From a virus (Duplodnaviria; Caudoviricetes): DNA of 64,000 nucleotides. A program made the position numbers and the translations under genes. Below are positions 2,056 through 54,575 of this stretch, piece by piece. The notes beneath the pieces are model-generated. The model was not told the origin of the DNA and ran no database searches. It saw only the letters and a list, made by a program, of their open reading frames with translations. Position 1 is the first letter of the stretch. Each line of letters begins with the position of its first letter. The stretch spans positions 2,013-66,012 of the IMG/VR virus record IMGVR_UViG_3300045282_000227. One strand, given 5' to 3'.

Positions 2056-3489
2056 ATGAACCAGATTCTCAGCACTGACAGTTACAAGTTCTCCCATTTC
2101 ATGCAGTATCCACCGGGAACGACAGACGTCTCGAGTTACATCGAGGCCCGTGGAACCAAGTTACCGAACGTCAAGGAGCTCGTCTTCCTTGGACTTCAGA
2201 GTTACATCAAAGACCGTCTCATGAAGCCGGTCACCATGGCCGATGTACGTGAAGCCGAAACATTCTGTTCCAAACACGGAGTTCCATTCAATGTCGAAGG
2301 TTGGACGACCATCGTTCGAGATCATGGCGGATTTCTTCCGATCAAGATCACTGCAGTACCAGAGGGCACGGTTGTTCCACTTGGAAATATGCTTGTACAA
2401 GTTCACACTCTGGACGAGCGCTTGCCTTGGTTGACCAGCTATGTCGAGACGGACATCTTGCGTTACGTCTGGTATCCGAGCACAGTCGGAACTGTGAGCC
2501 GCGAGATCAAGAAGATCATCAAGGCTGGCCTCGATGTGAGCTCAGACATTCCAGATGTCGTCCTTCCGTTCAAGTTGCATGACTTCGGCTACCGAGGCGT
2601 CTCGAGCACCGAATCGGCTGCACGTGGTGGCTTTGCGCATCTCGTGAACTTCCTCGGGACCGACACCGTCGCTGGCATCGAACATGCGATTGAGTTCTAT
2701 GACGCAGATGTCTGTGCATATTCGATCAGTGCTTCCGAGCATAGCACGATGACCTCGTGGGGTCAGGATTACGAATACGAAGCCTACGCGAACATGGTGA
2801 AGCAGTATGCCAAGAAGGGCGCCATTTTCGCGTGTGTCATTGACAGTTACGACACATTGAACGCCATAGACCTCTGGACACTGCCGCAACGGGGCCAGAA
2901 GAGCCTGACCGATCAAGTCAAGGAAGCCGGTGCAACGGTCGTCCTGCGTCCCGACTCTGGTCATCCGGTTGACATGCCGGTTCTGGTCGTGGACACTTTG
3001 CTGCGGCGCTTGAGGAAGGAAGGCAAAGTCAACGAGAAGGGCTTCGCGGTTCTCCCAGATCATGTTCGTGTCATCCAGGGCGACGGCATCGACATGCACG
3101 ACGTCAAGAACATTCTCGACAAACTAATCGCCGCAAAGAACAGTACCGAAAACATCGGCTTCGGCATGGGTGGTGGTCTGCTCCAGAAGTGCGACCGCGA
3201 CACATTCAAGTTCGCAATGAAGTGCAACGCGATCGAGATCGACGGTGAATGGCGTGCAGTATTCAAGGATCCGATCACCGACAAGGGCAAGGCTTCCAAG
3301 CGCGGACGCCAGGTTCTCCTGCGCCACAAGGAGACGAAGGAGTTCGTGACCGTGCGTGTCGAGTTGGGTGCTGATCTACGACTCGGTGGTTGGATCTCTG
3401 CAACCGAAGTGATGTTCAGTTCATATGCCGGGACAGTGAGGACCAATTTCACGACACTTGACAAGATTCGTGAAAGGGCGGCACTCTAA
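2056..3489 (+). CDS. nadV: Nicotinamide phosphoribosyltransferase
   Basis: TDSYKFSH, LHDFGYRG, SISASEHS, VLRPDSG, IQGDG, GFGMGGGLLQ, KDPITDKGKASKRG motifs. Confidence 0.97.
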   Translation: MNQILSTDSYKFSHFMQYPPGTTDVSSYIEARGTKLPNVKELVFLGLQSYIKDRLMKPVTMADVREAETFCSKHGVPFNVEGWTTIVRDHGGFLPIKITAVPEGTVVPLGNMLVQVHTLDERLPWLTSYVETDILRYVWYPSTVGTVSREIKKIIKAGLDVSSDIPDVVLPFKLHDFGYRGVSSTESAARGGFAHLVNFLGTDTVAGIEHAIEFYDADVCAYSISASEHSTMTSWGQDYEYEAYANMVKQYAKKGAIFACVIDSYDTLNAIDLWTLPQRGQKSLTDQVKEAGATVVLRPDSGHPVDMPVLVVDTLLRRLRKEGKVNEKGFAVLPDHVRVIQGDGIDMHDVKNILDKLIAAKNSTENIGFGMGGGLLQKCDRDTFKFAMKCNAIEIDGEWRAVFKDPITDKGKASKRGRQVLLRHKETKEFVTVRVELGADLRLGGWISATEVMFSSYAGTVRTNFTTLDKIRERAAL

Positions 3490-3498
3490 ATACTAGAC

Positions 3499-3572
3499 GC
3501 TCTGTTAGTATAGTGGTAGTACAGGTGTTTCGTAAGCACTTGGCGTAGGTTCGATTCCTACACGGAGCTCCA
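3499..3572 (+). tRNA. tRNA-Thr(CGT)
   Basis: Cloverleaf: acceptor GCTCTGT/ACGGAGC, anticodon arm GGTGT-TTCGTAA-GCACT, T arm GTAGG-TTCGATT-CCTAC, encoded CCA; TAAATA late-type box at 3487-3492. Confidence 0.93.
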
Positions 3573-3594
3573 ATTGACATTGAGGAGAAGTGAT

Positions 3595-3807
3595 ATGAAG
3601 CTGTCGTTCGTCGGCGTCGTTCTAGGTTTCGTCCTTGGAGTATCGAGCACAGTTCTCGCTACCACCGATCACTTCACCATCAACGGTGACAATCAATGCG
3701 ATCACTATACAATGGTCGTCGTGGCAACAGGTGAAGCCAATGCACAAGGCAAGCGCTATCCGGCCATGGAAGTCCTCTTGGTACCAAAGTGTGGGCGTTC
3801 TGCATAG
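3595..3807 (+). CDS. Small exported protein with signal peptide
   Basis: GAGGAG RBS; MKLSFVGVVLGFVLGVSSTVLA hydrophobic N-terminus. Confidence 0.65.
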   Translation: MKLSFVGVVLGFVLGVSSTVLATTDHFTINGDNQCDHYTMVVVATGEANAQGKRYPAMEVLLVPKCGRSA

Positions 3808-3813
3808 AAACAC

Positions 3814-3842
3814 TTGACTTCTTCCACGTAACACTATATCAT
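3814..3842 (+). promoter_or_regulatory. sigma70-type early promoter
   Basis: TTGACT-17-TATCAT; ATG 7 nt downstream. Confidence 0.75.
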
Positions 3843-3848
3843 CGTTGT

Positions 3849-4277
3849 ATGAATAAGAGCTTCAATATGCACTCACTCAGGAAGTTCTGGTACGAACAGA
3901 TTTCGTGTCGCATCTGGCCACGTCAGAAGTGGTTGACGAAGCAGATTCCCAAGACCTGGCAAGACAAGGATGGACTCATCGAGGATCTTGTCTTTGCGTG
4001 CCTGGTCAACTTCTGGGAAGCTGAGGACGGCGAAGAGTCCCTCCGTCTTCAGTATATCGATCCTGACAATCGTCTCAGTGATGAGCGACGTGCAAAATTC
4101 CGCGACATCTACCAGAGACTGAACAAAGCCTACTTCTGGGCGGTCTCTCGTAAGGCATTGTGGGACGACCCAACTCTTTCACCGAAGGAATTGGTCGAGC
4201 AAGAAGCTGTTCTCACCGAGAAAGATTCGTATTTTCTCAAAGAAATCATCGAACTACGTGAATACCTCTGGACCTAG
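3849..4277 (+). CDS. Hypothetical protein
   Basis: ORF directly after promoter; start reassigned to ATG 3849. Confidence 0.7.
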   Translation: MNKSFNMHSLRKFWYEQISCRIWPRQKWLTKQIPKTWQDKDGLIEDLVFACLVNFWEAEDGEESLRLQYIDPDNRLSDERRAKFRDIYQRLNKAYFWAVSRKALWDDPTLSPKELVEQEAVLTEKDSYFLKEIIELREYLWT

Positions 4278-4288
4278 GAGAATTGAAC

Positions 4289-4522
4289 ATGAGTGTCACT
4301 GACCAGCCGATCGAAGAGCTCGACAAGATCAAGCAGCTCGAAGCCATCGTCGAGAAGATTTCGGCTCTCGATACACAGAGAGGCAAGGCTATCGACGAGA
4401 TCAACGACGCACTCCAAGGCGTCGAAATCACCGAGGAGCTGCAAGATCGCCTCCAAGACCTCGCCTACGACATCGGCATGGAATGGGACGGCGAGCAGTT
4501 CTGGGAACCGTCGACCTGCTAA
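4289..4522 (+). CDS. Acidic helical protein ending in WxxSxC (QFWEPSTC)
   Basis: AGGAG RBS; see findings. Confidence 0.8.
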   Translation: MSVTDQPIEELDKIKQLEAIVEKISALDTQRGKAIDEINDALQGVEITEELQDRLQDLAYDIGMEWDGEQFWEPSTC

Positions 4523-4532
4523 GGAGCAGAAC

Positions 4533-4766
4533 ATGAGCGAGAAACTTGAAAGGCTTCACCTGATCGCCGATCAACTTCGGGCACTTCAAGTCCAGAAGAA
4601 CGACATCGTCCGCGAGTTGAAAGAGCAGACGAAGGACCTCGACGTGAGCGCGGAGACCGAGGAGAACGAAGAGCTCTTGGACGTCTTGGAAGACATTGCG
4701 TCCTGGGCCGATCTGGAACTGTCAACCCGTTCAAAGGTACAATTCTGGAAACCGTCAAGCTGCTAA
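4533..4766 (+). CDS. Acidic helical protein ending in WxxSxC (QFWKPSSC)
   Basis: AAGGAG RBS before ATG 4533; paralog of preceding ORF. Confidence 0.8.
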   Translation: MSEKLERLHLIADQLRALQVQKNDIVRELKEQTKDLDVSAETEENEELLDVLEDIASWADLELSTRSKVQFWKPSSC

Positions 4767-4771
4767 GGTGC

Positions 4772-4800
4772 TTGACATCTGAGTAACATTATCGTACAAT
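4772..4800 (+). promoter_or_regulatory. sigma70-type early promoter
   Basis: TTGACA-17-TACAAT; shares ACATTATCGTACAATC with the promoter at 14008. Confidence 0.8.
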
Positions 4801-4829
4801 CTGGTTACGTTAACCAGTGGGACAGAACG

Positions 4830-5018
4830 ATGAACAAGAAAGCCAAACTTGATGCTATCGTTGAAGGCCTGGCCGAAGCTGCACAGGCCGGTGATGTTGA
4901 GGTTCTCGGCCTCCCGAAAGAAGATCCACAGTGGGAAGCTTCAGACTGCATCGAAGAATGGTACCAGTCCGATTCGTGCACCGACGAATCCATCCTCTGG
5001 CAAAACTCAGGTTGCTAA
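4830..5018 (+). CDS. Small protein with three tandem WxxSxC-like motifs
   Basis: WEASDC, WYQSDSC, WQNSGC-stop. Confidence 0.75.
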   Translation: MNKKAKLDAIVEGLAEAAQAGDVEVLGLPKEDPQWEASDCIEEWYQSDSCTDESILWQNSGC

Positions 5019-5022
5019 AACC

Positions 5023-5496
5023 ATGAAGAAGATTGACGAACAAGAGTTACGTGACTTCATGATCAATATGAGTCCTGAGACCAAGATTTACTTTGGTGCA
5101 GACTCGGAGCGATTCAAGCAGAACGGAAGATGGTTCGCAAAGATCGTCACGGTCATCGTCGTGCACATCGAAGGTTGCAAGGGTTGCAAGATCTTTGCCG
5201 AGTCGACTACAATTCCTGACATCGACAAGGACTCAAGCAAGCCCTTCCAGAGAATGATGGCCGAAGCATCTGCCGTGGCTGACCTGCACGCTCGCTTCAA
5301 GGACGTCTTCTATGACTTCGAAGTCTCGATCCACTTGGACGTCAACCCTCGCAAGACAGCTGGTTCAAGTGTCGCGAAAGAAGCCGCCGTTGGATACATC
5401 AAGGCAATGACTCAGGTCACTCCTGAGTTGAAGCCTCTGGCATTCGCTGCATCATACGCTGCCGACCGTAGCGTCGACCTTGGGATATGCAAATGA
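5023..5496 (+). CDS. RNase H-like YkuK/DUF458 family protein
   Basis: KIYFGADS...VIVVH...RMMAEA...IHLDVN...KPLAFAASYAAD pattern. Confidence 0.8.
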   Translation: MKKIDEQELRDFMINMSPETKIYFGADSERFKQNGRWFAKIVTVIVVHIEGCKGCKIFAESTTIPDIDKDSSKPFQRMMAEASAVADLHARFKDVFYDFEVSIHLDVNPRKTAGSSVAKEAAVGYIKAMTQVTPELKPLAFAASYAADRSVDLGICK

Positions 5497-6041
5497 GTGA
5501 TCTCACAACACAAATCAACAACTGCGAATCGTTGCTGAAATTCTTAGATCAGATCATCCCGTCTTCTTTCAATGGCGGAATGTTCAGCAAGCGCGATGTG
5601 ACTGCTGGCTGTGCAATTCACTGGGCATACAAGTCGAGAAAACTGACGCTCGGCGTACTGTCGGCCATATCCAACTCGCGTGAAACGGGTGGTGGTGTAA
5701 TTTCGGAACCAGAAGTCATTGCTGCTTTCGAAGAGAGCTATGGACAAGGATCACCCGATCTCTTCGATAACATTGCGTGTCACTGTGGAAAGGACATCAA
5801 CGAGTTCCGAACCTGTCTCAAAGAACACATACAAGATCTGAGAAATAGGCGACGCACCAAGAGCTGGGAGGAACCCGAAGTCAAAGTTCCTTGGAATTCG
5901 AGCTTCGTCGTTCGATACAATGATGTACAATATCTATTCACCGATCGCAAGGTGATGGATGCTGAATTGGCAATCCTAAAGAAATTCCGTCCAGATGCCA
6001 ATCCAAAGATCTTCGAATACCAGTTGGTGGAAGTCAAATGA
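5493..6041 (+). CDS. Hypothetical protein
   Basis: ATGA-coupled ORF. Confidence 0.65.
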   Translation: MSDLTTQINNCESLLKFLDQIIPSSFNGGMFSKRDVTAGCAIHWAYKSRKLTLGVLSAISNSRETGGGVISEPEVIAAFEESYGQGSPDLFDNIACHCGKDINEFRTCLKEHIQDLRNRRRTKSWEEPEVKVPWNSSFVVRYNDVQYLFTDRKVMDAELAILKKFRPDANPKIFEYQLVEVK

Positions 6042-6460
6042 TTGTGAACTGGAAGAAGGACTCTTTTGTTAACGAGGAGGAAGAGTTCCAGCTCGTTGCT
6101 ACCGAACTGACCAAGAGTTCGGACCACAAAGAGTGGACTCGGAACTTCGAGAAACTGAAGTCGGCCTATCGAAACGGCAAGTTCATGAAACTCTCCGATG
6201 CTTTCTGGCGCCGCCTCGAGAACACCGATTCCTTCAAAGTCAAGACGATGAAGGATATCGAGAAGTTCATCACCACGAATTCTGGTGATTCTGGTGCGCG
6301 TGACATCTACGAGGTGATCAAAGAGATCGTCTCTGGCGTCTGTCGTGCACCGATCGTCATGAAGAAAGACAGCAAGTACACCTTGGTCGCCGGCAATGCA
6401 CGGCTCATGGCAGCAAGACTCTTGGGAATCAGACCAGACGTCATCGTGATGGCGATCTGA
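6038..6460 (+). CDS. ParB/Srx N-terminal-like domain protein
   Basis: APIVMK...YTLVAGNARLMAARLLG resembles the ParB GxxRxxA box. Confidence 0.7.
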   Translation: MIVNWKKDSFVNEEEEFQLVATELTKSSDHKEWTRNFEKLKSAYRNGKFMKLSDAFWRRLENTDSFKVKTMKDIEKFITTNSGDSGARDIYEVIKEIVSGVCRAPIVMKKDSKYTLVAGNARLMAARLLGIRPDVIVMAI

Positions 6461-7836: not shown

Positions 7837-8358
7837 ATGGCCTCAGTGAGATGGTATTCGACCGAGTATAACGAGCCGCTCGATGGGCAGAATTATGGCT
7901 CTGGTTGCTATGCCACCGCCGAGACACTCGCCGATGTCGTGAACAAGCGCGGCCTCGGCGAACGCCAGATGTTCGCGTCTGATGTCTATCCAGAGAGGGG
8001 TTGGCCGCTTCCTTCGAAGACCATCAAGGAATTGCATCTCGGCGCACCCGTGTCGACCCTGAAAGAACTCTTACACACTGCCATGTGGGTGGGTTACCAG
8101 GCCACCAAAGCTGATCCCAAGGGCGTCGACCTAGCATTCGGCGACAAAGGGGTCGTCCACGAGTTGGTCCATATCATCAACGATCTTGGCTTCACGGACT
8201 ACGAATACCGAGAACTCCACAAACACTGCCTCGAACTTGAATTGCTGGTGCCAGGCTTGTTGAACGAAGCCGAACAGACAGAGCATTGGTTTGAGTTGAC
8301 ATCCGAGTCAAGGCGTCGTACAATAAATCAAACCAAGGAATCAAATGAATCAGTTTGA
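7837..8358 (+). CDS. Hypothetical protein
   Basis: ORF with AAGGA RBS. Confidence 0.6.
   Translation: MASVRWYSTEYNEPLDGQNYGSGCYATAETLADVVNKRGLGERQMFASDVYPERGWPLPSKTIKELHLGAPVSTLKELLHTAMWVGYQATKADPKGVDLAFGDKGVVHELVHIINDLGFTDYEYRELHKHCLELELLVPGLLNEAEQTEHWFELTSESRRRTINQTKESNESV
8296..8324 (+). promoter_or_regulatory. sigma70-type early promoter
   Basis: TTGACA-17-TACAAT. Confidence 0.75.
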
Positions 8359-11388: not shown

Positions 11389-11939
11389 CAAGCCCACGAA
11401 TTTGGTTCACATCTGACCAGCACTTTGGTCATGCGAACATCATGAAGTACTACCCGGGTCGCGAAAGCCTCGGCACGGTCGAAGCCGTCGATCAGACAAT
11501 GATCACACAGTGGAACCGAGTGGTTGGCTATTCCGACCTCGTGTATGTCATCGGTGATATTGCGATGGGTGGCAATGTTGAGAAGACGATGGGAATCTAC
11601 CAGCGTCTCAATGGCACGAAGATCTTGGTGACAGGCAATCACGACAACAAGATGCTACGCAACCCGAAGTTCTTTGAACTCTTCAAGGAAGTGCATCTCA
11701 CCTATCACGAGCGTGTGATCAATGGTCAGCTGATCGTGATGTGTCATTTCCCGATCTGGGAGTGGCACCAGATACACCGAAACTCTTGGCACCTGCATGG
11801 TCACCTGCACGGCAAGCCGCACGGCATTCCGGGCAAGATACTGGATGTCAGCGCCGACGGTCACGATCTCACTCCATGGAGCTTCGAAGATGTCAAGCGA
11901 TACATGGATAAGCGCGAATTGCGCACACATCACACTTGA
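11385..11939 (+). CDS. Metallophosphoesterase
   Basis: FTSDQHFGH, IGDI, GNHD, CHFP, HGHLH. Confidence 0.92.
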   Translation: MTSPRIWFTSDQHFGHANIMKYYPGRESLGTVEAVDQTMITQWNRVVGYSDLVYVIGDIAMGGNVEKTMGIYQRLNGTKILVTGNHDNKMLRNPKFFELFKEVHLTYHERVINGQLIVMCHFPIWEWHQIHRNSWHLHGHLHGKPHGIPGKILDVSADGHDLTPWSFEDVKRYMDKRELRTHHT

Positions 11940-11964
11940 CATTGGATGAGATTCATTATATCAT
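11936..11964 (+). promoter_or_regulatory. sigma70-type early promoter
   Basis: TTGACA-17-TATCAT. Confidence 0.8.
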
Positions 11965-30138: not shown

Positions 30139-33100
30139 ATGGCTCTACGTAAACCTGTAGTCATCTCTGGCTCACCTCCCTATGTAGGCAATATTCAATC
30201 AGGCGACTCAATTGATCCCGTCTGGTTGAATCCACCAACAGGTACCGGCTTTGAGCATGTCACTGCCGGCGTTCGTGACTCTGCCGCATATGATCTATTC
30301 GGATCAGCCAATACCTGGACTGGTTCTGTCAATGACTTCCACATCGTCACGGGTACATTCTTCGGCGTAGGTGCATACAACCTCGTCGCAGCCTATAACT
30401 CAGAAACTACAACCAACGGCGTCGGTGCATTCGGCGCCTCTATGTTCCGTGAAGTCACGGCTATTGGTACAGGTTGGACAGCAGCCGCCACCTATAATTC
30501 TTTCTATAGCAACCCCTCTGTCACAGGCACAGGTTCTAATCCATTAGTTGGATCCTTGAACGCTTTCGTGGCCGCTGGCGCGACCATTGCAGTTGGTTCT
30601 ACCATCCCAGAACAGGATGGTTTCAAAGTTGCAGCCGGTGTCACCAATGGTACTCTGAACTATGGTTTCCGTGGACTACTAGCGGCCGATCCGGGTTCGC
30701 CGACATCATACACGGCTAGAACAATCACCAACGTCGCAGTCACTTCAAACGTCGTCACTGTCACGACATCAGCTGCTCACGGATTCACGGTTGGTCAGAT
30801 TGTCACGGTTGGTGCCAACACGAACGTATCGATCAATGGTTCGGCTATCGTCATTGCGTCGACCCCATTGACAACAACCTTCACGTATGCCCGTACGATG
30901 GGCAACATCACTTCTGGCGCAGACACTGGTACGGTTACACCGAATCAGCGCTGGAACCTGTACATGGATGGCGCGGCTCGAAACTATATCTCGACTGTCT
31001 TGATTGGTTCGACGACTGACTCTCTAAGTGGTGCCAAACTCCAGGTCAACGGGACCAGTGAATTCAACGGCAACGTCTCGATATCATCTACGACGAACTA
31101 CTTCAGAACCTATGGTGGCGGTGCAAGCCTCATGGGATACAAGGCCGGCGCAGACTCTGGCTTCACTGCATCGGTTGGTTTCTTCACTGGTGATCCAGGT
31201 ACAGCTGCCAACCAGCGTTGGGCGATTGCTAAATCAGCTGCCACAGAAACAGGTTCCAACGTCGGTTCGAATCTTGAAATCTATGGTTACAGTGACACGG
31301 GTTCATTCCTGGGTACATGGCTCAGCCTCGGCCGTTCGACAGGTAACATTGGTCTAGGTGGTTCTGCTTCGGCATCAATAGCATGCTATCTACAAGGATC
31401 GGCATCTGGTGGCACGGCATTGACAGGTTACCGCAACGTCCAGGCGGTACAGTCCGACGTCACTACACAGTATGTCAGCTACCACAGCATGCTGAATACG
31501 CTGGCCTCGCCGTTCGTGCTTGGTGCCTACTATCACTACTTGACGGCTGTCAACCTCCGCGGTCAGGCTTCTATCGTCACCAACCACTATGGATTCATCA
31601 CCCATGCAATGGCGGAAGGTACGAACAACTATGGCTACATGGGTCAGGTAGTTGTCGAGCCAGGTTCACCGACCACCTTTGCCAACAAGACGATCAGCAA
31701 CGTAGCCGTCACTTCAAACGTCGTTACCATCACAACTTCAACGGCCCACGGTTACACGGTCGGTCAGGTTGTAACAGTGAACTGCGGAACCAACACACAG
31801 TTGAATGGCTCCGGCATCACCATTGCATCGACTCCGTTGACGACCACTTTCACGTATGCATTGACAACAGCGAACGTCACTTCTGTGGCCGACACAGGCA
31901 CAGTGACACCTAACCGTCGTTGGAACCTGTATATGAACGGTACGGCCAACAACTACTTGAATGGTAGGTTGTTGCTAGGTAGCAACACAGACGATGGTAC
32001 CAACCAGCTACAGGTAACTGGCACATCGACCTTCACAGGACAGATCACGTCGACACTGGCGATAGGTACAGCCCCGTTCGCCGTGACGTCGACGACCAAG
32101 GTCACCAACCTCAACTCTGATTATCTCCAAGGTTTGCAGCTTGGACAGAGCGGCACGGCAATCCCACAGCTCAACTTATCAAATCAGTGGGGTGCTACTC
32201 AGAGATTCAATGCCACAATTTCTGTGGGTGCTGCACCGTCTCTAGACAAATCCTTCTGGTCAAGCTATGCAACCTATGGTGGCGTAGGCACCACCTATGG
32301 TATATCGATGGAAGACGTGGCAGCGTCGGCCAACACTACCGCATATATCAACTTCAGAGCAATGGGCACAACATCTGCCAATGCTTTCACCATGGTGAAC
32401 TACTATGGTTTTCAGTGTGCAACGATTACCAAGGGTGCTGGTTCGACCATCACCAATCACAATGGTTTCTATGCAGCTGACCAAACAGACGCGACCAACG
32501 TCTATGGCTTCTATGGTAACGTAGCTTCTGGTTCGACCAAGCGTAACCTATACATGGTTGGTACGGCCATCAACCACTTGGCCGGCGCGTTGATGATCGG
32601 TTCGAACACCGATGACACAGTAAGTAAGCTCCAGGTCACAGGTGACACCAAGCTAACTGGTAAGCTAGGTCTGACGGATTTGATGACCTTTGCAACAGGT
32701 ACGACGTCGTTGGCAGCATACAATGTCCCAGCTGGTACCTTGAAGACCACGCCGGTCGCGGGTGACAATGAATTTGATGGTGTCAACTTCTATGCAACCA
32801 TTGACACGACCAGCAAGCGCGGTTGCATTCCGGTCGAACAGTACTTCCATCTCACGGCCGACGGCTCGAACATCACGACAACGATTGCCAACTTCTTCGG
32901 CACCACCTCGAACATCTCATTAGTGGCCAGCGCCTACTATGACATTGAAATGATGCTGGTCTTCACCAAGACGACCACAGAAGCTCTGACCATCACACTC
33001 ACGAATTCTGCAGCGCCGACCTCCCAGAACATCTATTGGGAAGAAAGCCCAGCATCTGGTTTGGTCGCACCACCGGGTACGGCTACGGCATTGACGGGCT

Positions 33101-33321
33101 TTGTACGCAACGACGCAACAGCAGCCAAGGCAATCGTCACGGCGTCGTTGACAACTGCCACAGACCATTACATCTACATCAGGATTCAACTCAAGAACGG
33201 TACGGGTACGTCCTTGAAGATCCAGGCAACCAATCCGGCAGGTAGCATCACGCCACGCCTTGGTTCGTTCTGGCGTTGCCGTCGCATGAGCCCAAACAAC
33301 GTGGGTACATTCGCAGCATAA
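30139..33321 (+). CDS. Long tail fibre / receptor-binding protein with internal repeats
   Basis: 1060 aa, T/G/S/N rich, duplicated ~95-aa module and three NLYM.G.A.N repeats. Confidence 0.8.
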   Translation: MALRKPVVISGSPPYVGNIQSGDSIDPVWLNPPTGTGFEHVTAGVRDSAAYDLFGSANTWTGSVNDFHIVTGTFFGVGAYNLVAAYNSETTTNGVGAFGASMFREVTAIGTGWTAAATYNSFYSNPSVTGTGSNPLVGSLNAFVAAGATIAVGSTIPEQDGFKVAAGVTNGTLNYGFRGLLAADPGSPTSYTARTITNVAVTSNVVTVTTSAAHGFTVGQIVTVGANTNVSINGSAIVIASTPLTTTFTYARTMGNITSGADTGTVTPNQRWNLYMDGAARNYISTVLIGSTTDSLSGAKLQVNGTSEFNGNVSISSTTNYFRTYGGGASLMGYKAGADSGFTASVGFFTGDPGTAANQRWAIAKSAATETGSNVGSNLEIYGYSDTGSFLGTWLSLGRSTGNIGLGGSASASIACYLQGSASGGTALTGYRNVQAVQSDVTTQYVSYHSMLNTLASPFVLGAYYHYLTAVNLRGQASIVTNHYGFITHAMAEGTNNYGYMGQVVVEPGSPTTFANKTISNVAVTSNVVTITTSTAHGYTVGQVVTVNCGTNTQLNGSGITIASTPLTTTFTYALTTANVTSVADTGTVTPNRRWNLYMNGTANNYLNGRLLLGSNTDDGTNQLQVTGTSTFTGQITSTLAIGTAPFAVTSTTKVTNLNSDYLQGLQLGQSGTAIPQLNLSNQWGATQRFNATISVGAAPSLDKSFWSSYATYGGVGTTYGISMEDVAASANTTAYINFRAMGTTSANAFTMVNYYGFQCATITKGAGSTITNHNGFYAADQTDATNVYGFYGNVASGSTKRNLYMVGTAINHLAGALMIGSNTDDTVSKLQVTGDTKLTGKLGLTDLMTFATGTTSLAAYNVPAGTLKTTPVAGDNEFDGVNFYATIDTTSKRGCIPVEQYFHLTADGSNITTTIANFFGTTSNISLVASAYYDIEMMLVFTKTTTEALTITLTNSAAPTSQNIYWEESPASGLVAPPGTATALTGFVRNDATAAKAIVTASLTTATDHYIYIRIQLKNGTGTSLKIQATNPAGSITPRLGSFWRCRRMSPNNVGTFAA

Positions 33322-52049: not shown

Positions 52050-54575
52050 ATGATTCTTAGTCCACTAGGATGGCAACAATCCCTAGTGGGCTATCCTGGA
52101 ATAGCGCACCAGGAAGTCAATTGCTACTGGGTCTTCCGTCCTGGTAACAATGTTCCCATCCGTCTCGATACCACCTGGGCTCCGCGCTCAGGTAACGACG
52201 CGGCTATCGTATTCACCTGTTCGTCGATCTTCATCCCTCCGACCAACTTCGACGGATTCATCAATGTCTATGATGGCATCGCTCTTGATGTCATCCTGCT
52301 CACGTCGATCAGAGTGTTCATGCCGGTCGGTGAATATACGACGGCTGGGCTCTACACATACGTATTCACCAACTTCGACCCGTTCGCGGATGGTGCATAT
52401 ACAACTGTTCAGGTACTCGAACTCAATCTTCTCTTCAAAGCCTATGACGGCGTTGATTCGACGGCCGTCCTGCACGAGACATTCTTCTGTCGTGCCTATG
52501 ATGGTGCTGCAACAGGCTCGGCTTGCGCAGGTGTCAGTTTCGATCAGTTCTCGCATGTCTCGTCGGCAGGTAACGCGACCACTGTCAGCCCACCGACTGG
52601 CTTTGTACTCAAGACGTCTGGCGATGCGACCTATGGTGACAACCTAAGCACTGGCGTCACGACGACCTACGACAAGCCTGTCTCGATCACATGGACACAG
52701 GTTGCCAACGGAACACTGGTCTCTGATAACTCGACTACGTTCTCGCCGTATGCGTTTGCTCACTTCTTCACGAACAACCCGGCAAGCATAACGACCACAA
52801 CGTCGACGGATCCTGGTCGTAACCCGTTCGGTGCCGCTCTTGTAACATCGAACCCGCCATACATTGCCCTTGCACTTCCGAAGACGCCTGGCTCGGCCAT
52901 CACCCTTCGTGTATCGGACGGAACGACATCTTCTGATACGAGCATCACAGCGACCGGCGTCGACCTATTCGACGGTCTGCCAATCAATGTCACTCTGAAG
53001 AAGGCGCTCGACGGAAAGGCGGCTGTCGAGGTCTGGCACAACGATGCACTGCTCTACGACGCCGAAACTTCGCTGAATTATCCGTCCGACGTCTTGCCGA
53101 TATGGCACTTCGACAATGGCGCGAACAGTTCTGCAAACAATATCACCGTCGACAACCTTGCTTCCTGCGATGGCCACGAGTTCATCCACTTTGCCCAGGC
53201 AGATGTCCTTGTACCAAATGCACACCAGGTAGGCGAGTTCTGTCAGGCGAACCTGTATACTCGAGTCTCGTTCGTCTGCTCACAGTTCGTCGGCGAAGAC
53301 ATCTCGATCAACCTGACCCTACCGAACAGAACGCTGCCGACTGCGTTCGTCAAGGACGGCATTGCAATCACTGTCGACATGATCGTCGGCAACAATCTCG
53401 GCATCGTCCCGAACAAAGATGGCGCCTATGCAACGGCCGACATCACTGTCTCGCACCCACTCGGAACCATCAACGCATATGACGGCGTCGACAGCACGGT
53501 TGTTGATCTTTACGTCCTCCCGGCAATCAGAGCTGACGTCTATGATGGCGTCGCTATCTCGATCGACCTCAGACTCGATCCGGTGTTCGGTGAGACCTTT
53601 GCGTTCGACGGCGTCGCGTTCAGTCCGGCACTCACAGTCAACCACCCACAGAACTTTGGCATACTGAATGTCTATGATGGTCCGTATCTCACTCTGGTCC
53701 TCCACCACCCAGAAGCAGTGTTCTTCTACCCACGTCCGTTCTATGCTGGTGAAGAGTTCTACTCTGATGAGATTGGCTTCCGCTCCATGGATCTCGACTA
53801 TGACATCGTCGTGGATCCATGGTTCAACGGTCACGCGAATATCGAATTGGCGGGTGGTCCGCCTGCTCATGCTAGGTATTGGGGTTGCGGTCTCGAATGT
53901 GAAATCCGAGTCGACCTCAAGACTCTACCTGTCTTGCATCCGGTCGGTGCCTTCGACGGCCCAAGTATGTCGATCGTCGATCAGATCGTCCTACAGGTTG
54001 CACCATTCTATGTCGGCACCAATGCGACGCTCGAATGCATGGTTGTCGACTACACGAACATCAAGCTCTGCCCGGGTAACTTCATCCCGGACGGCGACCA
54101 CGCAGACATCGAGTTCCTCTATACATATCCAGAATGCGGAATCGTATACAAAGTCTATGACGGTGCTCGAATCGACTGCTATCTCTCGGCTCATTATGGA
54201 TTCTTCCTTCCGTCCTATGACGGTCCGTACATGTATTGCAACCTGTTCGTTCCGGAGCCGGTTGACATCTGGCACCTGAATGCCTATGATGGTCCGTTCA
54301 TGCGTGTCAGCAATCCAGAGTTCGATCCGAAGGCCTACGATGGCGCAGCAACGTACTTCGAATTCGCACCAGACAGATACTTCGCGTATGATGGTGCCTT
54401 CTGCACCGTGACTAAATTGACATTGGACTACAATGTAGAATTCCTTGAATCTGGTTGCCTCGACAACGAGTTCGTCCCGACGACACCAGAAGGCTATCTC
54501 GACTACAGCAAATTCAACCCGGTTCCGGTGGAGCTCGACTACTTCGAGCATAGCGTCCTGGCGCACTGCTTCTAA
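52050..54575 (+). CDS. Large virion protein with many (A/V)YDG repeats
   Basis: Many YDG/FDG/KDG units; TAAATA box near 51997. Confidence 0.7.
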   Translation: MILSPLGWQQSLVGYPGIAHQEVNCYWVFRPGNNVPIRLDTTWAPRSGNDAAIVFTCSSIFIPPTNFDGFINVYDGIALDVILLTSIRVFMPVGEYTTAGLYTYVFTNFDPFADGAYTTVQVLELNLLFKAYDGVDSTAVLHETFFCRAYDGAATGSACAGVSFDQFSHVSSAGNATTVSPPTGFVLKTSGDATYGDNLSTGVTTTYDKPVSITWTQVANGTLVSDNSTTFSPYAFAHFFTNNPASITTTTSTDPGRNPFGAALVTSNPPYIALALPKTPGSAITLRVSDGTTSSDTSITATGVDLFDGLPINVTLKKALDGKAAVEVWHNDALLYDAETSLNYPSDVLPIWHFDNGANSSANNITVDNLASCDGHEFIHFAQADVLVPNAHQVGEFCQANLYTRVSFVCSQFVGEDISINLTLPNRTLPTAFVKDGIAITVDMIVGNNLGIVPNKDGAYATADITVSHPLGTINAYDGVDSTVVDLYVLPAIRADVYDGVAISIDLRLDPVFGETFAFDGVAFSPALTVNHPQNFGILNVYDGPYLTLVLHHPEAVFFYPRPFYAGEEFYSDEIGFRSMDLDYDIVVDPWFNGHANIELAGGPPAHARYWGCGLECEIRVDLKTLPVLHPVGAFDGPSMSIVDQIVLQVAPFYVGTNATLECMVVDYTNIKLCPGNFIPDGDHADIEFLYTYPECGIVYKVYDGARIDCYLSAHYGFFLPSYDGPYMYCNLFVPEPVDIWHLNAYDGPFMRVSNPEFDPKAYDGAATYFEFAPDRYFAYDGAFCTVTKLTLDYNVEFLESGCLDNEFVPTTPEGYLDYSKFNPVPVELDYFEHSVLAHCF

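Follow-up and report, generated by a model that had tools for sequence, protein, structure and literature searches.

Introduction

Phages encode small proteins that end in a tail built on a tryptophan, a serine and a terminal cysteine (W...S...C). This Cys-tailed class is already catalogued as PHROGs, with its function unassigned; in phage RB69, for example, ORF136c and ORF137c lie beside ORF134c. Here we describe three consecutive genes, A, B and C, whose products carry tails of this kind. They lie in IMG/VR record IMGVR_UViG_3300045282_000227, a linear contig of 66,012 bp (51.6% G+C, estimated to be ~42% complete) from a T4-like myovirus of soil; the window, the stretch analysed, comprises 64,000 nucleotides (positions 2,013 to 66,012 of the record) and is the larger part of that contig. 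We find that A and B, judged by sequence, are a separate rare family bearing the tail and absent from Pfam and PHROGs. Relatives of this family occur in genomes that also encode a nucleotidyltransferase of predicted MenT-like fold, and the tail may serve that enzyme as a docking or acceptor tag.

The closest described proteins are those of PHROGs 899, 4882 and 23943. The window proteins resemble them in being small, mostly acidic and phage-only, in occurring as tandem copies and in carrying the W...S...C tail strictly at the C-terminus, and both kinds are found in the same genomes, those of Acidovorax phage ACP17 and Xanthomonas phages BUDD and X1. A box ahead of the tail is possibly shared as well, reading A-Y-G-M-G-G-x-Y-D-G in the PHROG proteins and A-Y-x-x-G-M-E-W-D-G in the window. 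However, the window family has no hidden Markov model (HMM) match, its Trp-to-Cys spacing is five where seven is commoner, and it contains an invariant Pro. It is also very rare and does not lie beside the enzyme.

The enzyme invites a second comparison. MenT toxins lengthen tRNAs at the 3' end and are kept under control by small antitoxins (PMC10435456, PMC11375011, PMC7450476). As in the MenAT and AbiE systems of the DUF1814 family, one or more small genes stand upstream of a nucleotidyltransferase, and the partner enzyme has a similar predicted fold (Z 8.4-9.5). The likeness is by fold only, however, and the present system is phage-borne, offers many tailed partners per enzyme and includes a contig without the enzyme. 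We know of no MenA antitoxin with such a tail.

Precursors of RiPPs (peptides synthesized ribosomally and modified post-translationally), including multi-core precursors and the 3-thiaglutamate scaffold, share with our proteins a short C-terminal Trp/Ser/Cys motif that is sometimes repeated and, in relatives, linked to an enzyme. Unlike these precursors, the window proteins keep the motif and vary in the N-terminal part, which is predicted to fold, and we found no known maturase, protease or exporter. Aminovinyl-cysteine (AviCys) peptides arise from a C-terminal Cys and an upstream Ser/Thr with the help of a LanD/HFCD decarboxylase. The window tails likewise have a C-terminal Cys with a Ser two residues earlier, but they belong to 77-aa proteins of predicted fold from a Gram-negative lytic phage whose contig holds no HFCD flavoprotein match. 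Among C-terminal docking motifs, the acidic tails of SSB and the class I PDZ ligands (S/T-x-hydrophobic-COOH) are well known, and the window proteins resemble them in their acidic body and in an invariant motif placed exactly at the C-terminus. To our knowledge, a terminal Cys with Trp at -5 belongs to no known class of C-terminal motif.

Results

Three adjacent genes share a terminal Trp/Ser/Cys motif

Genes A, B and C are consecutive open reading frames (ORFs) on the + strand (Table 1). When the entire 66,012-bp contig was scanned in six frames (stop-to-stop frames of at least 30 aa), they alone ended in W.{2,3}S.C. An earlier reading of the letters without database searches, here called the sequence-only reading, had singled out the three genes by their endings (QFWEPSTC, QFWKPSSC and a terminal WQNSGC), and the coordinates and frame scan agree with it. 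Its further observations also proved correct: C contains three cores (WEASDC, WYQSDSC and WQNSGC), A and B are acidic, and cysteine is confined to the motifs in all three proteins (one residue each in A and B, three in C). The calculated pI values are 4.05 for A, 4.51 for B and 4.05 for C.

A and B are homologous over their whole length (BLASTP E 2e-9, 28% identity). Their aligned gene bodies share 83 of 171 bases, or 49% DNA identity, whereas the last nine codons comprise five identical codons, two synonymous differences and two conservative changes. The 3' ends thus match in DNA while the bodies diverge, as had been noticed from the letters alone. We considered recent gene conversion as the source of this match and rejected it on the codon pattern. 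Because of that same pattern in the last nine codons, the match points to selection on the peptide, and the synonymous changes within the motif indicate purifying selection.

An AlphaFold2 model of A (pLDDT 72) places three helices before a small hairpin formed by the box, with the tail following. A fold search with this model gave no match at E<=0.001; the predicted fold is a generic three-helix bundle. For C, the Atlas model has a pLDDT of 0.52, and the Atlas search returned no usable feature match. Word-indexed protein searches with A and with C retrieved only the queries themselves, and the Pfam and PHROG matches for all three proteins fell under the cut-off, leaving them without a family in either collection. 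A, B and C are probably small acidic cytoplasmic proteins made early, with C grouped by its tails only.

A rare phage family keeps the tail invariant

Relatives of A and B came from several searches. In 50,697 phage records, tblastn matches reached the last residue in BUDD, X1 and ACP17 (E 1e-4 to 3e-4). BUDD and X1 each carry four tandem family genes, with ends FWVPSTC, F/YWQPSTC, YWEPSTC and YWEPSNC, and ACP17 carries a single one ending FWEPSTC. We then built a profile from A, B and the ACP17 protein and searched 1.84 billion (1.84e9) representatives. At E<=1e-3 it returned 11 proteins, 10 of them 77-123 aa long. One match, the 2155-aa protein P0008, aligned in six stretches (best at profile positions 39-68) and was set aside as presumably compositional. 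The profile recognizes A at E 1.3e-20 and B at E 3.2e-21 and gives no match to C. A pattern search confirmed ACP17 only among viral contigs, 0 of 34 stretches in JGI metagenome contigs and 0 of 24 in bacterial and archaeal genome contigs. Homologues with the same ending come from three cultured phages and six metagenomic clusters, the latter of one or two sequences each. These searches of phage records, representatives, genomes and metagenomes together indicate that the family is real, rare and so far phage-only.

Conservation is concentrated at the end of the protein. An 11-member family alignment shows no variation at M1, W, P, S and the terminal C, and in all seven metagenomic and phage representatives that we examined an (A/S)-Y-x-x-G-[LM]-E-[WF]-D-G box precedes the end FW[EVF]PS[TS]C. 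Between BUDD and X1 orthologues, 7-8 of the last eight residues are kept, against 68-90% identity elsewhere. The sequence-only reading had proposed that selection acts on the motif and had named loss of the terminal W/S/C in homologues as a refuting outcome; the invariant W, P, S and C in both sets (11/11 and 7/7) support its proposal. A strictly C-terminal [FY]-W-x-P-S-[TSN]-C is present in A and B. C lies outside the F-W-x-P-S-[TS]-C family because its end, W-Q-N-S-G-C, has neither the F nor the P. Protein and phage-record searches found no relatives of C, which shares only the motifs.

Similar tails cluster beside a predicted nucleotidyltransferase

BUDD, X1 and ACP17 each contain one gene for an enzyme of phrog_2141 (E 1e-106 to 1e-114). 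The enzyme combines the Pfam domains DUF7277 and DUF7275 and is a MenT-like nucleotidyltransferase by predicted fold. Its model (pLDDT 82.6) aligns with MenT3/TglT at Z 9.5, with MenT1 at Z 9.1 and with MenT4 at Z 8.4, and Foldseek matches it to MenT nucleotidyltransferases at E 1e-4. It also resembles LnuA, ANT(2'') and other pol-beta-type nucleotidyltransferases. By sequence it has no DUF1814 match, and Pfam lists DUF7275 and DUF7277 only. All 32 enzyme sequences compared keep a G-S...D-x-D signature and a long block, TSITSGWFREFAWE, without change. The gene is present in 731 of the 50,697 phage records, which include RB69-type phages and phages of Acinetobacter, Aeromonas, Klebsiella and Pseudomonas.

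With the ACP17 enzyme as query, we retrieved 46 IMG/VR viral loci that encode it, and 39 of them contain at least one ORF with a W..S..C tail. The tailed ORFs lie overwhelmingly on the strand of the enzyme (64, compared with 2 on the opposite strand). A tailed ORF stands upstream on the same strand at 36 of 45 loci, no more than 300 bp away in 26 of those. The position of the motif within the ORF also differs between strands: on the enzyme's strand, 54 occurrences are terminal and 15 internal, compared with 0 terminal and 11 internal on the other. At one locus (L063, 1739-3996), five tandem tailed genes, all ending AG[TV]W[ILV][PH]SS..C, precede the enzyme, a local expansion like that of the window.

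The enzyme-adjacent tails include forms close to those of A, B and C. Among 61 distinct tails, Trp stands seven residues before the terminal Cys in 45 (W-x-[SAP]-S-S-x-x-C) and five before it, as in the window, in 13 (W-x-x-S-x-C). Some contain a Pro, as in the window (WEPSSVNC, WYPSSESC), and the tail at locus L039, WEASDC, is the first motif of C. A second, internal motif is found in seven of the 61 proteins, comparable to the repeats of C, and its inner copy is often followed by Y-G-E/G.

Individual genomes give the same picture. BUDD, X1, ACP17 and RB69 all carry the enzyme together with annotated tailed genes. In RB69 the enzyme is ORF134c, with ORF136c (WVSSSYSC) and ORF137c (WVASSHTC) upstream. 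The enzyme was not found in T4, DLP_6 or Syn19, and the four in-frame pattern matches in these phages (inside rnlB, antisense to a head gene, inside gp5 and inside dam) are none of them annotated gene ends. In ACP17 the enzyme is preceded by a 103-aa member of phrog_899 (E 1.7e-5) ending WMSSSEAC. The end of the FWEPSTC gene in the same phage is overlapped by the next gene (L002 3168-3626), which encodes 152 aa ending DWESSSLYC, so that both tail types adjoin there. Tailed proteins are also encoded beside the BUDD enzyme, one of 74 aa that carries two motifs (PWHSSDC...SWNASNC) and one of 63 aa that ends WSASWC. Other tailed genes are scattered, such as USV41013 in BUDD (WDSSSC) and ASD50441 in ACP17 (WSSSGC), and a genome may hold up to 8 for one enzyme. 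Upstream of the BUDD enzyme and three genes from it, we also observed a 153-aa protein with a GGADGAD motif (L017 4059-4520).

Genome context

The contig bears T4-like marks, namely baseplate wedge proteins (phrog_219, phrog_438) and a pair of NMNAT/Nudix and NAMPT genes. The window and BUDD are collinear for about 30 kb, between the NMNAT gene and the tail-fibre region. In BUDD (147444-175978), 28 kb separate NAMPT from the YkuK gene, compared with 1.5 kb in the window (3489-5023). This BUDD block holds a glycosyltransferase, the MenT-like enzyme, ribonucleotide reductase (RNR), glutaredoxin, DNA ligase and the four-gene tailed array.

The tailed arrays have no conserved neighbour. The YkuK gene does begin 4 nt downstream of the stop codon of C, as the sequence-only reading had pointed out, but the link is local. 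In both BUDD and X1 the array and YkuK are 7 kb apart, neither of two other IMG/VR YkuK loci contains tailed ORFs, and ACP17 is not among the matches listed (30 of 76 YkuK-holding records). We therefore rejected YkuK as a partner, its adjacency to tailed genes not being conserved. The strong promoter that had been proposed for C is present as a predicted site (Table 1), and its early use is probable. Two further sigma-70-type sites with 11/12 matches and 17-nt spacers lie on the + strand at 8296-8324 and 11936-11964, and promoter-like sites number 21 in 12 kb against 9.0 expected.

Table 1. Positions, in window coordinates, of the tailed genes, their motifs and the adjoining features.
Feature	Position	Strand	Description
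Gene A	4289-4522	+	77 aa, acidic; A-Y-D-I-G-M-E-W-D-G box; end QFWEPSTC (terminal FWEPSTC)
Tail of A, W-E-P-S-T-C	4502-4519	+	Stop codon directly after
Gene B	4533-4766	+	77 aa, paralogue of A; end QFWKPSSC
Tail of B, W-K-P-S-S-C	4746-4763	+	From contig frame scan and A/B codon comparison
Promoter-like site (predicted sigma-70 type)	4772-4800	+	TTGACA-17-TACAAT, 11/12 matches; upstream of gene C
Gene C	4830-5018	+	62 aa; 34-aa N-terminal part, then three tail-like motifs
Motifs of C	WEASDC 4932-4949; WYQSDSC 4959-4979; terminal WQNSGC 4998-5015	+
YkuK / RNase H-like gene	5023-5496	+	PF04308 E 5.7e-15, phrog_11311; neighbour of A-C

Several other features of the window deserve mention. The NAD salvage pair consists of an NMNAT/Nudix fusion (515-1603; phrog_395, phrog_1198) and the adjoining NAMPT gene (2056-3489; PF04095+PF18127); KVP40-type phages have the same pair, and BUDD has it in the same order. 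A 140-aa protein (6038-6460) lacks a Pfam match and weakly matches ParB-like or nuclease PHROGs (E 0.002-0.08). In the structural region, proteins of 1060 aa and 841 aa (30139-33321 and 52050-54575) have no PHROG match at E<=1e-5.

Discussion

At a probability of roughly 0.45, we favor the reading in which the tail serves the MenT-like nucleotidyltransferase as a C-terminal tag, for docking or as an acceptor. The sequence-only reading had offered RiPP-like precursors, a terminal-Cys warhead and a conjugation or targeting tag, and of these the tag fits best. The class would be phage-only. In its members an invariant [FY]-W-x-P-S-[TS]-C at the C-terminus would follow an A-Y-x-x-G-[LM]-E-[WF]-D-G box and a helical body that varies. 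The tail would serve as a short linear motif, read by the phage nucleotidyltransferase with its MenT/AbiEii-like fold. In this scheme the enzyme would grip the exposed C-terminus and then either transfer a nucleotide to the tail Ser/Thr (or Cys) or itself be controlled by the tail, while the functions of individual proteins would reside in their variable bodies. In the lineage of the window, BUDD, X1 and ACP17, a subfamily would have departed from the enzyme's side and multiplied in tandem, and the enzyme gene of the window's phage would be located in its unsequenced part.

The window family is tied to the enzyme-adjacent class by the shared, strictly terminal tail, by their presence in the same genomes and by the gene adjacency in ACP17. 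As a sequence relationship, the link is weak. Searching the contig with phrog_899 at E<=10 gave nothing. The hhalign pairing sets LAYDIGMEWDGE..FWEPST against AYGMGGRYDG..WYPSS. Complex prediction for the ACP17 enzyme (residues 1-320) and the C-terminal 52 residues of the FWEPSTC protein scored 0.00, which we take as evidence neither way.

A number of observations weigh against a docking or acceptor tag. Seven of the 46 enzyme loci have no tailed ORF, and the internal motif copies, in C and in 7 of 61 enzyme-adjacent proteins, conflict with a strict requirement for a free C-terminus. The fourth BUDD copy (L001 4830-5138) ends WEPSNCY, one extra Tyr codon having taken the terminal position from Cys, whereas its X1 orthologue (L003 4766-5071) ends WEPSNC. 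The enzyme was not found on the window's 66-kb contig, which is ~42% complete, and the slot between NAMPT and YkuK, where BUDD has its enzyme, holds only A, B and C. Even where both are present, in BUDD, X1 and ACP17, the family arrays are 8-16 kb from the enzyme. Co-occurrence was sampled in few genomes, four with the enzyme and three without, which are not independent because BUDD and X1 are close kin. Finally, A, B and C have no hmmscan match to phrog_899, 4882 or 23943 at E<=0.1; pairwise phmmer comparisons with the enzyme-adjacent proteins, in a set of 64 sequences, give marginal matches (best E 0.005, 0.026 and 0.001), and hhalign is weak (E 0.013, probability 3%, 23 columns).

A rival reading is that of stand-alone inhibitors or decoys, whose tails would plug a pocket in a host or defence protein with no need of a phage enzyme. 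The pocket might be a C-terminus-binding domain, a metal site or an active site, and tandem copies would supply dose or breadth. Small size, acidity, helical structure and a promoter of consensus sigma-70 type are common among phage anti-host proteins, and the window proteins are likewise small, acidic and predicted to be helical, behind a site of that type. The Ser at -2 with a small C-terminal residue resembles class I C-terminal ligands, and the arrays stand away from the enzyme in all four genomes for which we have context. We nevertheless regard inhibition as unlikely, if the most credible of the alternatives, since it leaves unexplained both the clustering of the tail class beside one enzyme (39/46 loci) and the lack of tailed genes in the three enzyme-less T4-like phages. 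A single shared target would also have to be highly conserved, because the hosts span Xanthomonas, Acidovorax and E. coli. The enzyme itself could instead be the effector, acting for instance on tRNA ends, with the tailed proteins restraining or timing it like antitoxins. Its closest structural matches are indeed the toxins MenT1, MenT3 and MenT4, and the genes directly upstream of it are small and acidic, matching the common order of antitoxin before toxin. Yet up to 8 scattered tailed genes per enzyme do not resemble a toxin-antitoxin pair, the enzyme has no DUF1814 match by sequence, and its gene was not found on this contig, all of which makes such regulators quite improbable in our view.

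Maturation into RiPPs was among the suggestions of the sequence-only reading. The tails would be modified at Trp, Ser or Cys and released as cores, or the Cys would bear a small molecule; a scaffold peptide with a C-terminal Cys is the precedent set by 3-thiaglutamate (bioRxiv 10.1101/338681). Proteins with several motifs do exist (three in C, two in 7 of 61 enzyme-adjacent proteins), and a modifying-type enzyme is genetically linked. The pattern of conservation, however, is inverted, with an invariant "core" and a variable "leader" that is predicted to fold, and this weakens the RiPP reading. Moreover, radical SAM, YcaO and HFCD flavoprotein gave 0 matches each in the contig, which is a fragment, we saw no protease or exporter beside the arrays, and the phages are lytic and T4-like. 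We consider RiPP-type or scaffold peptides doubtful. The associated idea of an enzyme encoded elsewhere fares better, as BUDD, X1 and ACP17 carry the nucleotidyltransferase and 39/46 enzyme loci carry tails, though the RiPP logic behind it does not carry over. Least probable by far is that the ORFs are not genes or that their endings coincide by chance. C is an orphan, which would suit that explanation, but three of three adjacent ORFs end in this way with no other such frame in 66 kb, A/B homologues from three cultured phages and six metagenomic clusters share the ending, and the synonymous changes in the motif indicate purifying selection. For A and B, chance is close to refuted.

Within the tag reading, a bolder form is a viral post-translational "tag and writer", in which the enzyme nucleotidylates the tails or builds a small molecule on the terminal Cys. 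We hold this form to be unlikely. If it applied, the tails would mark as many as 8 small phage proteins per genome that are otherwise unrelated, and the three genes of the window would be substrates that escaped from the enzyme's operon.

We found no published description of the tail, the small proteins, the enzyme or its Pfam domains, in a search that had most subscription journals and supplements outside its reach. What is new here is a separate rare family with the tag, uncoupled from the enzyme gene, together with a three-motif member. A conserved, strictly terminal Trp/Ser/Cys tag on small early proteins that are otherwise unrelated suggests that they have a reader or writer in common. 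The tag provides a simple handle on dozens of "hypothetical" phage genes, and RB69 in E. coli offers direct experimental access to the question of what it does. If the bolder form is true, these phages would possess a "tag and writer" system without a described counterpart.

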